Shown piece after piece: positions 5,661 through 39,335 of a stretch of DNA of 64,000 nucleotides. This stretch comes from an uncultured Gammaproteobacteria bacterium. Lineage in GTDB: Bacteria; Pseudomonadota; Gammaproteobacteria; SZUA-152. How positions within the stretch are numbered: the first letter of the stretch is position 1; every line of letters starts with the position of its first letter. Location of the stretch: NCBI GenBank assembly GCA_913009875.1, contig CAJVYS010000004.1, positions 4,137 to 68,136 of the forward strand, given 5' to 3'. The notes under the pieces are model-generated. The model searched no databases. It saw only the letters and a program-made list of their open reading frames with translations, and had not been told where the DNA came from. Made by a program: the position numbers and the translations under genes.

Positions 5661-7256
5661 ATGACCACAGCCACCCGGCCCCGCCTTCTCACTTTTCACT
5701 TCTCCCCCCTCGCCACCCTGGCAAGCCTGGTGGTGCTGGCGGCCGCCATCCCGCTGCTGTACGTGGTCTGGAACAGCCTGCAACTGAGTGGTCCGCAATG
5801 GGCGGGATTATGGACGTCGCGCCTGCCAACACTGCTATGGAATACCCTCTCTCTGGCCCTGCTGGTGGCCATCGGCAGCGTACTGCTGGGTGTCTCCAGC
5901 GCCTGGCTGATTGCGCGGCGAGAATTCGCTGGCCGACGACTGGCGGTGTGGCTAATGGTGCTGCCGCTGACCATCCCCACCTACGTCTTCGCCCATATCT
6001 ACACCACCCTGCTGGAAGACGACGGCTGGCTCGGCCAACTGTGGATCGCCCTGTTTGACAGCGACCAATACCTGCCCGATCTGTTCAACGTCTGGGGCGC
6101 CACCCTGATCCTGACCCTGGCGGGCTTTTCTTACGTTTTTCTGCTCGCGCATTCAGCGCTGGGGGTTTCCACCCGCAGCCTGGAGGAGGCCGCACGCATC
6201 CAGGGCGCCTCGCGCGCCGAGGTGTTCTGGCGTATCAACCTGCCCCTACTGCGCCCGGCCATCGCCGCTGCGCTGGCGGTGGTGGTGCTGCACGTGCTGT
6301 CCGATTTTGGCGCCGTGAGCATGCTGCAATATCAGACCTTTACCCTGAGTATTTATCTGCAAATGAGCGGCCGCTTCAATTACCAGGCCGCCGCCGGGCT
6401 GTCGCTGGTGCTGGTGCTGCTGAGTCTCACCTTCCTGCTGCTGGAGCGCTTTTTCCGCAGCCGTCAGCGCTACTACTCGACCCGTCAGCCACGCCGTCAA
6501 CTGCGCCGCCGCGCCAATATGCTGGAGACCGGCCTGATCTGGGGCTGGCTGGGGCTGATCACCCTGCTGGCCTTCGGCCTGCCGCTGGCGTGGATGCTGA
6601 GCTGGAGTTGGGTGGCCTGGCAGGAACAGCTCATCGATGCGGAATTCTGGGGCTATGTGCGCAACTCACTGCTGGTTGCCGTACTGGCCGCCAGCGTGGC
6701 ACTGGTTGTTGCCCTGCCCGTTGCCCTCTATCACGCCCGCAAGCGCAATCTGCTGGGTGGTATCCTACTGCAGCTCTCCAGTGTCGGCTTCGTGCTACCC
6801 GGGCCGGTCATCGCGCTGGGTATCCTTAGCTTCTTCCTCGCCCAGCTGCCCTTGCTCTACGGCGGTATGACGGCGCTGGTGATCGCCCTGGTGATCCGCT
6901 TCCTGCCGCTGGCGGTGCAATCACAGGACGCCGCCATGGCCCAGCTCACCCCTTCCCTCGAACAGGCCAGCCGCAGCCTTGGCGCGGGGCCGCTGGAGAC
7001 CCTGTGGCACATCACTCTGCCGATGATCCGCGGCGGCATGGCCACCGCCTGGGTGCTGGTGTTCATCGACGCATTGAAGGAACTGCCGGCGACCCTGATC
7101 CTGCGCCCCACCGGCTTCGACACCCTGCCGGTGCGGATCTGGATCGAGGCCAGTGAGGAGATGCTGGAACTGGCCGCCCCGGCGGCGCTGATGCTGGTGA
7201 TCGGCACCCTGCCGGTGCTGTGGATCCTGCTGCGCGGTGAGCGCCGCGGTGCTTGA
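5661..7256 (+). CDS. fbpB: Fe(3+) ABC transporter permease, fused two-domain FbpB/HitB-like
   Basis: ~530 aa with duplicated 6-TM permease halves (EAA-like loops); downstream of fbpA; no cognate ATPase follows. Confidence 0.7.
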   Translation: MTTATRPRLLTFHFSPLATLASLVVLAAAIPLLYVVWNSLQLSGPQWAGLWTSRLPTLLWNTLSLALLVAIGSVLLGVSSAWLIARREFAGRRLAVWLMVLPLTIPTYVFAHIYTTLLEDDGWLGQLWIALFDSDQYLPDLFNVWGATLILTLAGFSYVFLLAHSALGVSTRSLEEAARIQGASRAEVFWRINLPLLRPAIAAALAVVVLHVLSDFGAVSMLQYQTFTLSIYLQMSGRFNYQAAAGLSLVLVLLSLTFLLLERFFRSRQRYYSTRQPRRQLRRRANMLETGLIWGWLGLITLLAFGLPLAWMLSWSWVAWQEQLIDAEFWGYVRNSLLVAVLAASVALVVALPVALYHARKRNLLGGILLQLSSVGFVLPGPVIALGILSFFLAQLPLLYGGMTALVIALVIRFLPLAVQSQDAAMAQLTPSLEQASRSLGAGPLETLWHITLPMIRGGMATAWVLVFIDALKELPATLILRPTGFDTLPVRIWIEASEEMLELAAPAALMLVIGTLPVLWILLRGERRGA

Positions 7257-7274
7257 TTTGCTTACTCAAAATCA

Positions 7275-7300
7275 CCACAGAGGACACAGAGAACACAGAG
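7275..7300. repeat. Partial copy of MITE-like TIR (CCACAGAGGACACAGAGAACACAGAG)
   Basis: Matches the 26-bp terminal inverted repeats of elements at 53454-53599 and 56400-56532. Confidence 0.4.
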
Positions 7301-7338
7301 AAAGAACCCATTTTATTAGTTTCAGCTAAAGGTTAAAA

Positions 7339-7366
7339 CCACCGCCTTTAGGTGGTCAGATTTATC
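7339..7366 (+). terminator. Putative intrinsic terminator after fbpB
   Basis: CCACCGCC-TTTA-GGTGG hairpin followed by TCAGATTTATC. Confidence 0.35.
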
Positions 7367-7428
7367 AGCCATGTTTGGTGTGTGAGCGTTGAAGTTGGAG
7401 AGGGCAGTTGCCTCTCAGGTAGGATGCT

Positions 7429-7640
7429 GGTGAGCGGAGCGAACCGCATCGGTCGCGTCTCTGGAGTCTGTGCAGGCGCCCATCGGGAGGTCTTCAGCTC
7501 TCGAATGATGCGGTTCGTGGAACTCACCGGCATCCTACAGGAAGTTCCAAAGTGGCCTTCAAGAACGGGTCTATTGACCCGTATCCGGACTTTCAGTCCG
7601 TTAAACTAACCCACCAGCTTTAGCTGGTGGTTGTTGAGTG
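7429..7640 (+). ncRNA. Candidate structured RNA/repeat element, copy 1: conserved core 7507-7640 plus an upstream inverted arm 7429-7451
   Basis: Core shares ~85% identity in blocks with 37743-37892; hairpins GATGCGG..CCGGCATC, CGGACT-TTC-AGTCCG, CCACCAGC-TTTA-GCTGGTGG followed by TTGTTGAGTG; arm 7429-7451 is the reverse complement of 7507-7540. Confidence 0.4.
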
Positions 7641-7657
7641 GGTGCTAAGGTTGTGCC

Positions 7658-8401
7658 GTGAAGCTCCACATTCTGAATGACCTACATATTGAGTTCGAAG
7701 ACTTCGAGCCACCGGCAACCGATGCTGATGTCATCGTTCTTGCCGGCGATATCGGCGTGGGTACGGGTGGGCTGCGCTGGGCAGAAGCCAAGTTTCCGGA
7801 GCGGCCAGTAATCTACGTGCCGGGGAACCACGAGTTCTACCATCATGATATTGCACTGATTGACGAGCTGAAGTCAGAGGCGCCCGATAATATTCACGTA
7901 CTGAACGACGATCAGGTCATCATCGGCGAGGTACGATTCCTGGGCAGTGTCCTGTGGACGGACTTCGCCGTGTTTGGCGAGGCGGACAAGTTTTTTGCCA
8001 TGCAGCAGGCGCGACAGCAGATGGCGGATTTTTCCATTATTCAAAATCATGGGCAGCGATTCACTCCTGAGGATGCCGCCAGGCTGCACACAGCAAGTCG
8101 GGACTGGTTGGCCGTCATGCTGGCGGAACCCTTCGCCGGCAAGACGGTGGTGGTCACCCATCATGCCCCTTCATCCCGGTCGGTGCATCCAAGGTATGCG
8201 CATGACCTGCTGACCCCGGCCTTCGCCAGCAAGCTCGAAAATCTCATGGATGGCGGTCGGGCAGCACTGTGGCTTCATGGGCACATGCATGAGTCTTTCG
8301 ATTACGAGGTCTATGGCACGCGGGTAATCTGCAACCCGCGCGGCTATGCCCCAAAGGCACTGAATCCGGACTTCAGGCCGGATTGGGTCGTGAAGATCTG
8401 A
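7658..8401 (+). CDS. Calcineurin-like metallophosphoesterase (standalone, 247 aa), GTG start
   Basis: Motifs LNDLHIE (D-x-H), LAGDIG (GD), GNHE, plus later His-rich blocks; AAGG RBS before GTG. Confidence 0.75.
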   Translation: MKLHILNDLHIEFEDFEPPATDADVIVLAGDIGVGTGGLRWAEAKFPERPVIYVPGNHEFYHHDIALIDELKSEAPDNIHVLNDDQVIIGEVRFLGSVLWTDFAVFGEADKFFAMQQARQQMADFSIIQNHGQRFTPEDAARLHTASRDWLAVMLAEPFAGKTVVVTHHAPSSRSVHPRYAHDLLTPAFASKLENLMDGGRAALWLHGHMHESFDYEVYGTRVICNPRGYAPKALNPDFRPDWVVKI

Positions 8402-8572
8402 ATAGCGAAATTTTCGACAACAGTGAAGGCCATTCGATATATGCTGACCGGTCGGCACAGAACCCCGGTATATTCGTTGCCAGCGCGGCGGCCCATGGCC
8501 CGAAAAACATGCCCAACGATTTCAATGCCTGCGAAGGTCAAAATTCGTAAACGAAAAAGGACTGCAATAAAT

Positions 8573-12285: not shown

Positions 12286-12307
12286 CCATTGAAGCGCAGG
12301 CCGGGAT

Positions 12308-12337: not shown

Positions 12338-12592
12338 ATGAGCCGAAAGCATAGCCGCACCCTGGCGGCCATCTTCGCCAACCCTGTCCGCGCCAATATC
12401 GTGTGGACTGACATTGAGGTGATGCTTAAGGCCATCGGAGCGGAGATCTCGGAAGGTGAAGGTCCCCGCGTTTGGGTTGCGCTCAACGATGTGCGGGCCG
12501 TCTTCCACCGGCCGCACCCGGAGAAGGAAACGGACAAGGGGGCCGTGAAGTCGATGCGTACATTTTTGGAGCGCTCAGGCATCACACCCTAG
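12338..12592 (+). CDS. hicA: HicA-family mRNA interferase toxin
   Basis: YcfA/HicA-like ~85 aa; followed by the HicB partner. Confidence 0.7.
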   Translation: MSRKHSRTLAAIFANPVRANIVWTDIEVMLKAIGAEISEGEGPRVWVALNDVRAVFHRPHPEKETDKGAVKSMRTFLERSGITP

Positions 12593-12635
12593 TATTGATT
12601 AAAAGGCCTGCGGGCCATAACAGATAGGTAGCATC

Positions 12636-12962
12636 ATGTTGAAATATAAAGGTTATATAGGTCAGGTGGAATTTGATGCCGAGGCTAATATTATTCATGG
12701 CGAGGTAATCAACACCCGCGATGTAATCACCTTTCAGGGTGAATCTGTGGACGAGCTACGCCAAGCCTTTGAGGCCTCGGTCGAGGACTATCTGGCCTTT
12801 TGTGCTGAACGTGGCGAAGATCCAGACAAGCCATTCTCCGGCCAATTTCTGATCCGGGGTAAGCCAGATTTGCACCGTGATATTTTTGCTGCGGCGGCAA
12901 GGGAGGGAAAGAGTCTGAACGCCTACGTGATTGAGCAGCTAGACCGGCTCGTACACGCCTAA
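12636..12962 (+). CDS. hicB: HicB-family antitoxin
   Basis: HicB N-domain (MLKYKGYIGQVEFDAEANIIHGEV) plus C-terminal RHH-like DNA-binding region. Confidence 0.8.
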   Translation: MLKYKGYIGQVEFDAEANIIHGEVINTRDVITFQGESVDELRQAFEASVEDYLAFCAERGEDPDKPFSGQFLIRGKPDLHRDIFAAAAREGKSLNAYVIEQLDRLVHA

Positions 12963-37543: not shown

Positions 37544-37742
37544 TTGGGGGTGTTCTCAATGGATTAAGACCATAACTGCCGGCCCTTTGGGTTGCGCCTG
37601 AAAAAAACGCTATGCTGCGTTGTTCGTCGTTCATTTGCAAATGAGTCAATTTCTCCCCTCACGCCTCGTCTCAGGGCGTCTACTTTGAGGGGAGGGGTGG
37701 CATCGGCAAACATCCGCGCCGGGCACTTGATCATACGCGAAC

Positions 37743-37892
37743 GATGCGGTTCGCTACCGCTCACCGGCATCCTACACGGTATTTTGAGACGTATTGTCCG
37801 GTTGGGTTTCAAAACGGGTCTACCGATCCATATCCGGACTTTCAGTCCGTAAGACTAACCTACCCGCTTTGGCGGGTGGTGGTTGTTGAGTG
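37743..37892 (+). ncRNA. Candidate structured RNA/repeat element, copy 2
   Basis: Homologous to 7507-7640; same three hairpins, terminal hairpin ACCCGC-TTTG-GCGGGT with a compensatory change, then TTGTTGAGTG; 10 nt from the stop of the convergent WGR gene. Confidence 0.4.
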
Positions 37893-37902
37893 AGAACGCT
37901 CC

Positions 37903-38145
37903 CTAATCCCCCTTGACGAAAACGACGCGAAAGCCGCGTTTGAGTTGCGCATCGCGGGCGTTAATCAGCGCCGCGACGCCGGCCTCGCGCTCGTCGAAGT
38001 GTTTTTTCGTGACCCGCCCGGAAGAGCCCTGCCGTCCGGATTCGTGCACCAGGTTCCAACCGCTGATCAGATCCTTCTGCAGGAGCAGGTGATAGTAGCG
38101 GGGCGCATTTCCACTGTCGGGCGGTGTCTGCAGGTAGATTCGCAT
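37903..38145 (-). CDS. Small standalone WGR-domain protein (80 aa)
   Basis: MRIYLQ...GWNLVHESGRQGSSGRV...LKRGF matches the WGR-domain pattern. Confidence 0.65.
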   Translation of the reverse strand: MRIYLQTPPDSGNAPRYYHLLLQKDLISGWNLVHESGRQGSSGRVTKKHFDEREAGVAALINARDAQLKRGFRVVFVKGD

Positions 38146-38174
38146 GGGGGGAAGGGTACTGGATATAGCCCTTG

Positions 38175-39335
38175 TCAGGTGAGTTTTGCCGGGGTAAAAA
38201 TGCGCTCGTATTCCTGGATGGCGTAGCGGTCGGTCATACCGGCGATGTAGTCGGCGACGGCGCGCGCGCGGCCACTGATGCCGGTTTCGGCCTCCAGTTC
38301 GGCGGCCTTGTGCTGGGCCTCTGGCGGCAGCAGCAGGGGGTCGTCGAGGAAGCTGTCGAACAGGGCTCGGATGATGCTGCGCGCCTTGGAGGTCATGCGG
38401 TGTACACGGTAGTGGCGGTACAAGTGATTGCGCAGAAACTGCTTCAGTTCCCGGTTCATGGTCTGCATGGGCTTACTGAAGCCGGCCAGGGGGGCTGGTT
38501 GGTCGAGGATGTCGTTGCGCGATTGTGGTGCGGCGGCGGCCAGATGTTCGCGGGTGGTCTCTATCAGATCCGAAACCTGGCGGTTGATCATGCGGCGGAT
38601 GATTTCGTGAATGGCGCGACGCCGTTGCAGGCTGGGGTAGGTAGCCATGACGGTTTCGTGTTGTTCGCGGAACAGCTGGATCTCGCACAGCTGCTCAATG
38701 TTGATGAGGCCGGCGCGCAGGCCATCGTCGATGTCATGATTGTTGTAGGCGATCTCATCGGCGATGTTGGTGATCTGTGCTTCCAGGCCCGGTTGTTGCT
38801 TTTTCAGGAAGCGTTCGCCGAGTTCACCCAGTTGGCGGGCGTTGTCCGCCGAGCAGTGCTTGAGGATGCCCTCGCGGGTTTCGAAGGTGAGGTTAAGACC
38901 ATCGAATTCGGCGTATTTCTCTTCCAGCTGGTCGACGATACGCAGGGATTGCAGGTTGTGCTCGAAGCCGCCGTGGTCGCGCATGCACTGGTTGAGGGCG
39001 TCCTGGCCGGCATGGCCGAAGGGGGTGTGGCCGAGGTCGTGGGCGAGGGCGATGGTCTCGGCCAGTACCTCGTTGACGCCGAGGATACGCGCCACGGAGC
39101 GGGCGATTTGTGCGACCTCGATGGAGTGGGTGAGGCGGGTACGGAACATGTCGCCTTCGTGATTGACGAATACCTGGGTCTTGTATTCGAGGCGGCGGAA
39201 GGCGGCGGAGTGGACGATGCGGTCGCGGTCGCGCTGGAATTCGCTGCGGTGTTCGGGGGGCGGTTCGTCGTGGCGTCGACCGCGCGAGTTGGCGGCGGTG
39301 CTGGCATAGGCAGAGCGTGCGGTGAGTTCCATCAC
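38175..39335 (-). CDS. dGTP triphosphohydrolase-like protein (HD domain, Dgt type 2)
   Basis: HD motif [11 protein letters not shown]...[13 protein letters not shown]; 386 aa; ATGA overlap with the aroB stop. Confidence 0.85.

Follow-up and report, generated by a model that had tools for sequence, protein, structure and literature searches.

A putative gene-less IS200-type element with a REPIN in place of tnpA, found as one complete copy and one right-hand fragment in a gammaproteobacterial contig

Within the IS200/IS605 family, IS608 and ISDra2 are the established models of single-stranded DNA transposition, and excision of the IS200/IS605 type requires both ends of the element. The REP/RAYT system is thought to be a domesticated relative of IS200 elements, and REPINs have been argued to pass only vertically, together with their RAYT. 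An individual REP is characterized by GTAG or GTGG located 0–2 nt 5' of the foot of a hairpin (PMC6006769; see also PMC3733652). The name PATE denotes a short gene-less unit made up of subterminal palindromes and a few transposase 3' bases, which is presumably mobilized in trans (PMC7290912, PMC10055086); the PATE-like elements described in those two papers derive from tnpB-carrying IS605-type elements. Here we describe two segments from the window, by which we mean the whole 64,000-nucleotide stretch of DNA that was analysed, from an uncultured gammaproteobacterium. We consider it very probable that both belong to a gene-less IS200-type derivative (a PATE or MITE) of the IS200/IS605 family, in which a REPIN has taken the place of tnpA.

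A sequence-only reading of the window had taken the two segments for homologous structured elements in the same orientation, and had proposed that they represent either an undescribed sRNA family or an insertion-associated site. The homology and the shared orientation are borne out by BLASTN of copy 1 against the 64-kb window, in which positions 7502–7640 match positions 37738–37892 with 74 % identity (E 5e-22), both on the + strand. Copy 2 is the sole match of copy 1 in the window besides short REP-versus-REP matches, and the 20-mer TATCCGGACTTTCAGTCCGT has two exact occurrences there, against none expected from shuffled sequences. Three shared hairpins had been reported, and all were found in both copies on the + strand: hairpin (i), GATGCGG..CCGGCATC, at 7507–7534 and 37743–37771; hairpin (ii), CGGACT-TTC-AGTCCG, at 7586–7600 and 37835–37849; and hairpin (iii), which reads CCACCAGC-TTTA-GCTGGTGG in copy 1 and CTACCCGC-TTTG-GCGGGTGG in copy 2. 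The compensatory A:T to C:G change in hairpin (iii) is confirmed by the alignment of the two copies. The homology of copy 1 to other members of its family reaches further left than the segment originally delimited, to position 7312.

Copy 1 and its relatives

Copy 1 occupies positions 7312–7639 of the + strand (328 bp) and has the make-up of a complete non-autonomous IS200/IS605-family element, comprising a left end (LE), a REPIN, a tnpA 3' remnant and a right end (RE). Its limits are fixed by a further copy in a metagenome contig (L120), the positions 12429–12756 of which are 98.2 % identical to exactly 7312–7639, from TTTATT to GAGT, with flanks that do not align; the same limits are thus shared by two copies lying in unrelated DNA. 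Beyond this copy, the contig resembles the window only in REP and RE repeat modules and in a marginal match of 88 nt, and its GC content is 53 %, compared with 61 % for the window. As judged from these alignments, the near identity indicates that the 328-bp unit moved recently between DNA contexts and, because the GC contents differ, the move was probably a transfer between organisms. Insertion in the IS200/IS605 family takes place 3' of a conserved tetra- or pentanucleotide and duplicates no target sequence. No direct repeat was found flanking either copy 1 or the L120 copy, and inspection of the left flanks (..CCCAT, ..GGTGG, ..ATATG, ..CCATG, ..GTTGG) revealed no clear common tetra- or pentanucleotide target.

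The LE, at 7312–7362 (+) with terminus TTTATT..., matches the LE sequence TTTATTnTCCATCnAAAGGTTAAAACCACCGGCTTTAGCCGGT that precedes intact tnpA in other loci (L002, L121, L123, L124, L126, L129 and L130), and it contains a subterminal hairpin, ACCACC-GCCTTTA-GGTGGT, predicted in the DNA fold at 7338–7356 (+). The adjoining stretch, 7363–7418 (+), extends to a would-be tnpA start codon and is, by similarity, a putative remnant of the IS200 5' untranslated leader; it resembles by eye the leader of the L002 element (...GGCTGGAGGGCAAGCGC-ATG) and aligns with the L032 and L079 copies. Then follow the two arms of the REPIN. REP-a, at 7419–7455 (+), is GTAG-tagged (GTAGGATGCTGGTGAGCGGAGCGAACCGCATCGGTCG) and forms the left arm, an inverted repeat with 7502–7538; REP-b, at 7502–7538 (+), consists of hairpin (i) and the CGAAT/GTTCG stem, and its minus strand reads GTAG followed by a bulged hairpin. 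The spacer at 7539–7564 (+) shows weak similarity to tnpA and is probably a decayed remnant of the 3' end of that gene; it resembles, by eye, the tnpA 3' ends of L001 and L002 (CATCATTTTGAGCCG..AATTTCAGG), and a longer version (..ATTTTGAG..GATTTCAAAA..) is present in copy 2, L032 and L079. Next comes a hairpin, ACGGGTC-TATT-GACCCGT, at 7565–7582 (+), which in full-length elements is located directly 3' of the tnpA stop codon and is referred to here as the post-tnpA hairpin. It is followed by hairpin (ii), near-invariant in 14 family members, and by the RE at 7611–7639 (+), which comprises hairpin (iii) at 7611–7630 and the tail TTGTTGAGT at 7631–7639. This tail, noted as terminator-like in the sequence-only reading, forms the conserved end of the element. 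The LE and RE hairpins of copy 1 both lie on the + strand, and there are no terminal inverted repeats.

The nature of the right end is apparent from relatives that carry tnpA. A sensitive BLASTN search of plasmids with positions 7490–7650 returned 14 records, all matching the 3' half only, with 78–88 % identity, from hosts that include Pseudomonas, Azotobacter, Providencia, Vibrio, Paraburkholderia, Nitrosospira, Methylomagnum, Desulfolutivibrio and Deinococcus; BLAST against a phage collection gave no match. In the Pseudomonas aeruginosa plasmid NZ_CP052760 (L002), the match begins 20 nt past the stop of a tnpA gene annotated as IS200/IS605, the product of which, WP_169433272, scores 166 bits on NF033573 (NCBIfam transpos_IS200) and 155 bits on PF01797. 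Annotated tnpA genes stop 4–20 nt before the match in L002, L121, L123, L124 and L126; the RE also follows tnpA in plasmids of Vibrio, Azotobacter, Methylomagnum and Deinococcus, the same order is seen in the viral contigs L129 and L130 (IMG/VR), and the Providencia and Paraburkholderia matches lie 3' of tnpA remnants. The similarity of all relatives stops at ...GAGT. Since the same sequence directly follows tnpA in these relatives, hairpins (ii) and (iii), together with the tail TTGTTGAGT, can be identified by sequence as the RE of an IS200-type element.

A conserved segment of ~130–150 nt that stops exactly at the RE boundary is also what might be expected of a stand-alone omega RNA module of a TnpB/IscB-type IS605 element, with a scaffold ending at the RE and a guide taken from the flank, and PATEs have been reported to encode omega RNAs often (PMC10055086). 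Yet every autonomous relative seen contains tnpA but no tnpB, the RE starting 4–20 nt past the tnpA stop codon; the sequence upstream of the RE is made up of REP and tnpA remnant rather than of a tnpB 3' end; and neither Rfam, for the RNA, nor Pfam, for the ORFs, gives a match. We find such a module barely credible.

From its sequence, hairpin (i) is best identified as a GTAG-tagged REP, and the family to which it belongs, with REPs of the GTAGGATGCCGGTGAG type, is very widespread. The minus strand of both 7502–7538 and 37736–37775 reads GTAG and then, at a distance of 0 nt, the bulged hairpin GATGC(C)GGT...ACCGCATC. In a scan of species-representative genomes the pattern GATGCGG-N(8-18)-CACCGGCATCCTAC was found at at least 113 loci, many of them as close inverted doublets, and many genomes hold multiple copies of this REP; Sedimenticola SB48 and MAG OTE_88 each had at least 10 contigs matched. 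One of the loci (L069) contains, 27 nt from the REP, a RAYT ORF scoring 108 bits on NF047646 (REP-associated tyrosine transposase; cut-off 80). In copy 1 the REPIN arms, 7419–7455 and 7502–7538, are 37 nt long, 78 % complementary and 46 nt apart, and they pair as the dominant long hairpin in the single-stranded DNA fold of the element (z = -9.8); the CGAAT/GTTCG stem corresponds to the conserved GTTCGCG extension of the REP unit. Apart from the three REPs within the two elements, no REP of this family occurs elsewhere in the 64-kb window, which argues that the REPs were brought in by the element rather than inserted on site. Neither tnpA (tblastn with TnpA) nor a RAYT gene was found in the window.

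Full composite copies were identified in L032 and L079 (same MAG), L096 and L120, and the flanks are all different; copy 1 aligns over its full length with those of L032, L079 and L096, and the copy in L119 is cut by the contig start before its left end. The order of parts in the composite is LE, leader remnant, REP-a, spacer, REP-b, ~40–55 nt, post-tnpA hairpin, CGGACT hairpin and RE. The ~40–55 nt show a weak similarity, seen by eye, to the last codons of tnpA (..CATCATTTTGAGCCG..AATTTCAGG..), and by this similarity the REPIN seems to have replaced nearly the whole of the gene. Such copies are few, with only seven recovered in all from very large collections by exact pattern matches and only two loci found in a metagenome scan for the REP-to-RE composite. 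The genes neighbouring the other copies, as judged by eye from ORF translations, are cytochrome-like, metal-efflux-like, toxin-antitoxin-like and acyl-CoA-synthetase-like. A specific link with accessory islands, suggested earlier, is not upheld, the other copies adjoining ordinary genes of varied kind; the broader suggestion that the segment is insertion-associated was well founded, since the segment is itself an insertion element, and membership of a known REP/MITE family, which the sequence-only reading had named as the finding that would count against its proposal, is what the analysis found. Metagenome contigs from the same organism as the window end near copy 2 or start inside copy 1, and such contig ends could represent assembly breaks at repeats.

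Copy 2 and its gene context

Copy 2 is a right-hand fragment only, extending from about 37692 to 37891 (+) and comprising REPIN-spacer-like sequence, REP-b, tnpA 3' remnant and RE. From REP-b to RE it is 84–88 % identical to L079, L032 and L096, to which, by BLASTN, it is closer than to copy 1; the two copies in the window are therefore not duplicates of each other. Its REP-b (CGCGAAC-GATGCGGTTCGCTACCGCTCACCGGCATC-CTAC), at 37736–37775 (+), is identical to the REP in L032, L058, L074 and L079. The post-tnpA hairpin at 37814–37831 (+) contains one mismatch and one G-T pair, hairpin (ii) is intact at the position given above, and the RE hairpin with its tail, TGG-TTGTTGAGT, at 37860–37891 (+), shows a 3-nt duplication in the tail. 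The left end and REP-a of copy 2 were not detectable. A candidate for a decayed LE at about 37551–37595, suggested by MAFFT, was dropped when its local alignment score proved to be background, the score of the LE-like match at 37551–37572 being reached by 101 of 358 control chunks. As both ends are needed and no LE was detected, copy 2 should not be excisable by the IS200/IS605 mechanism and is probably immobile. A second type of REP to the left of copy 2 was also considered and rejected; the 17-nt motif concerned is common to the flank of the L120 copy, has only one occurrence in the window and is found in two of the fetched loci, one of which (L117) is a contig of the same organism.

Copy 2 sits between two co-directional genes, WGR and AAA+/SPOR, and is antisense to both, whereas copy 1 is co-directional with its neighbours, an ABC permease gene and the metallophosphoesterase gene. 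The adjacency of copy 2 to the WGR gene had been noted earlier and stands, but the gap to the stop codon is 11 nt (37892–37902) rather than 10 nt. The location of copy 2 between these genes, and that of the metallophosphoesterase start codon 18 nt beyond the end of copy 1, might suggest a domesticated cis-acting element kept for terminating or stabilizing neighbouring transcripts. REPs and MITEs have been reported to affect mRNA stability (PMC3733652), and the RE side of copy 2 is far better kept than whatever lay to its left. The two copies, however, face opposite ways with respect to host transcription, the T-tracts are weak, members of the family are found at unrelated sites, and a truncated element can be explained without selection. 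We regard domestication as very unlikely; if the segments are IS200-type elements, any effects on neighbouring genes, through hairpins in mRNA or through termination, would be incidental. The segments may nevertheless be transcribed together with their neighbours and have some side effect as RNA.

Covariation and candidate RNA functions

The claim that selection has acted on a nucleic-acid structure rather than on a peptide is supported by covariation in 14 sequences and by ORFs that have no Pfam match. In 14 related RE sequences, 93.6 % of the cells of hairpins (ii) and (iii) are standard pairs, compared with 20–49 % when the 3' partners are slid, and the apical pairs of the RE hairpin vary (AU/GC/CG/UA). 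Hairpin (ii) considered by itself is paired in 97.6 % of cells across the 14 family members, with one G-C to C-G flip. The post-tnpA hairpin is present in L001 and has compensated stems elsewhere, namely ACGCGTCG/CGACGCGT in L002, L003 and L123, ACGCGCC/GGCGCGT in L126 and AACCGGC/GCCGGTT in L125. A peptide reading was considered and rejected, the 85- and 86-aa ORFs that run across the copies being unrelated to TnpA. The strand asymmetry of a G·U pair had been offered as a pointer to RNA, but G-T pairs form in DNA too, and for this reason the asymmetry does not favour RNA. We infer that the covariation reflects hairpins recognized in single-stranded DNA by TnpA (in the case of the REPs, by RAYT) and not an RNA function.

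The proposal of an undescribed sRNA gene family, giving a transcript of ~130–200 nt with three hairpins and ending at the TTGTTGAGTG tail, must be weighed against the same data. Compensatory changes and G-U pairs are features that such a family would show; the + strand RNA folds of the two copies are better than those of shuffled sequences (z = -3.6 and -3.3), and a terminator scan marked the RE hairpin of copy 2 on the + strand. The same scan, however, called the RE hairpin of copy 1 on the minus strand only, no promoter-like site was predicted at either copy, and the copies have opposite orientations relative to the host genes. The same hairpins are needed as single-stranded DNA sites, where G-T pairs can also form, and homologues occur in unrelated contexts and unrelated organisms. 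Every module is explained by transposon or REP DNA: the conserved segment resolves in full into known mobile-DNA parts, namely a GTAG-tagged REP, a tnpA 3' remnant and an IS200-type RE. The sRNA proposal is thus not sustained, and we consider it extremely unlikely.

Searches for known RNAs point the same way. The whole window contained no match to Rfam 15 at gathering score and no tRNA or tmRNA, and at a permissive E-value positions 7250–7700 gave sub-threshold matches only. The best of these was psRNA14 (RF02351), the model of which has a 5' hairpin (ACUCAACAACCACCgGCUAAAGCcGGUGGUUGUUGAGU) that approximates the reverse complement of the RE hairpin and tail. Identity with psRNA14 was rejected: the match reached 20.2 bits where the gathering score is 60 (E 0.68), lay on the opposite (minus) strand and left the second hairpin unmatched. 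When seven loci with full-length or remnant relatives were searched, psRNA14 was absent from the matches up to E = 1, and a literature search on psRNA14 found nothing. No Rfam family for the IS ends was found in those seven loci, the matches obtained being an unrelated RNA-OUT, a sub-threshold group II intron and a weak Atu_Ti3.

Proposed movement and relation to described systems

Our working model for the IS200-type element, by analogy with the family models, is that a Y1 HUH TnpA, encoded by an autonomous relative at another site in the cell, would bind the hairpins of both ends in the single-stranded top strand. A TnpA dimer would then cut at the left boundary and after ...GAGT, freeing a single-strand circle, and the circle would insert into single-stranded DNA at a replication fork ('peel-and-paste'). 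Members of the IS200/IS605 family show an orientation bias, with the top strand on the lagging-strand template (PMC7290912). In both copies the top strand is the + strand. GC skew on this strand is positive across almost all of the window, so that it is expected to serve as the lagging-strand template, an observation that, coming from two copies, is consistent with the bias and nothing stronger.

The REPIN may have inserted between the IS200 ends by chance, with a deletion following. Alternatively, the LE-REPIN-RE chimera might act as a 'shuttle' between unrelated genomes that seeds REP populations, or might be doubly mobilizable, by IS200 TnpA and by RAYT. This idea is prompted by the 98 % identical copies in DNA of 61 % and 53 % GC, together with the finding that the same REP stands free in at least one MAG, JAJRWE01, in which the chimera is present too; we nevertheless think it unlikely. 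If the presence of REPINs within IS200 ends should go beyond chance, it would offer REPINs a route for horizontal spread and would tie the REP/RAYT system concretely to IS200 elements.

The identification as an IS200-type derivative has more immediate consequences. It removes a false sRNA lead, and it illustrates that RNA is not the only source of strong covariation in intergenic hairpins, which may also stem from the single-stranded DNA sites that HUH transposases recognize. Annotation gains a non-autonomous IS200-type element of 328 bp whose ends are exactly defined. This element occurs in marine and soil bacteria that are distant from one another, as well as on plasmids and in prophage-like contigs, and may add to contig breaks in metagenome assemblies.

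PATEs, REPs, REPINs and RAYTs are each well described. What is unusual about the window element is its REPIN alone: in the PATE and REP literature cited here we found no earlier description of a REPIN travelling between IS200 ends. With the 600-bp IS200-type element of the P. aeruginosa plasmid (L002), the elements in the window have in common the terminus ...TTGTTGAGT, the hairpins that follow the tnpA stop codon and the lack of terminal inverted repeats; unlike that element, they contain a REP doublet instead of tnpA, and copy 2 is without a left end. The definition of a PATE fits the window element, which is gene-less and has subterminal palindromes and a tnpA 3' remnant, but, unlike the PATE-like elements already described, it derives from the tnpA-only IS200 type and carries a REPIN. 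As in other REPs and REPINs, hairpin (i) is GTAG-tagged and bulged, forms an inverted doublet in copy 1 and belongs to a family that is multi-copy in many genomes; unlike the usual REPs, however, those in the window are not free-standing but lie within IS200 ends, with which they appear to move as one 328-bp unit.

Distribution of the REP and of IS200-type relatives

The GTAG-tagged palindrome found inside both copies of the element (the REP, GATGCGGTTCG..CACCGGCATCCTAC) is conserved nearly base for base in Gammaproteobacteria, Betaproteobacteria and metagenome-assembled genomes of Desulfobacterota (loci L004–L116), and it is found even in a contig binned as Bathyarchaeota (L027). This range is unusually broad for a single REP sequence type. 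Full-length IS200-type relatives with the same left and right ends are present in two IMG/VR contigs predicted to be of viral or prophage origin (L129 and L130), and their TnpA proteins are 89–99 % identical to that of the intact element on the Pseudomonas aeruginosa plasmid NZ_CP052760. Carriage on viral or prophage DNA of this kind is a possible route of spread.

Sequences and contig limits around the two copies

Three tandem repeats of the 9-mer CACAGAGAA occupy positions 7276–7302 of the window, and 9 nt separate the array from the left end of copy 1, the complete non-autonomous element. To the left of copy 2, the right-hand fragment, lies a 17-nt motif, CTCAGGGCG(T/C)CTACTTT (37670–37686), which is also present at 12307–12323 of L120, a metagenome contig carrying a 98.2 % identical copy of copy 1, where it lies approximately 110 nt to the left of the element. 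The motif could represent another GTAG-tagged palindrome, or its occurrence at both sites could be due to chance.

Two contigs of a marine metagenome (ERZ909563; L117 and L118) encode WGR and metallophosphoesterase proteins identical to those of the window. The first ends about 110 bp past the copy 2 region and the second begins within the right end of copy 1, limits that could reflect assembly breaks at the repeated element.

Genes neighbouring the element

The hsdM-like ORF at 8423–9289 matches the N6_Mtase profile only over positions 2–106 of 311, and the gene, encoding a type I methylase, may carry a truncation or a frameshift. Beside copy 2, on the minus strand (37903–39335), a dGTPase-like gene with HD and HD_assoc domains has a 4-nt overlap with the stop codon of aroB, and next to it comes a short gene for a WGR-domain protein. 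The pair is flanked by aroB and an AAA+/SPOR gene, inside a pilQ-aroK-aroB-...-gltB run. In Pseudomonas the flanking genes probably make up a conserved cluster, so the two genes between them may have been inserted together; they are possibly a defence pair acting by nucleotide depletion.

Resemblance of the right end to Rfam psRNA14

Rfam family psRNA14 (RF02351) has a 5' hairpin that is very nearly the reverse complement of the right-end hairpin and tail of the IS200-type element (window 7577–7643, minus strand). A literature search for psRNA14 found no paper. The psRNA14 family may itself be derived from the ends of IS200-type transposons.
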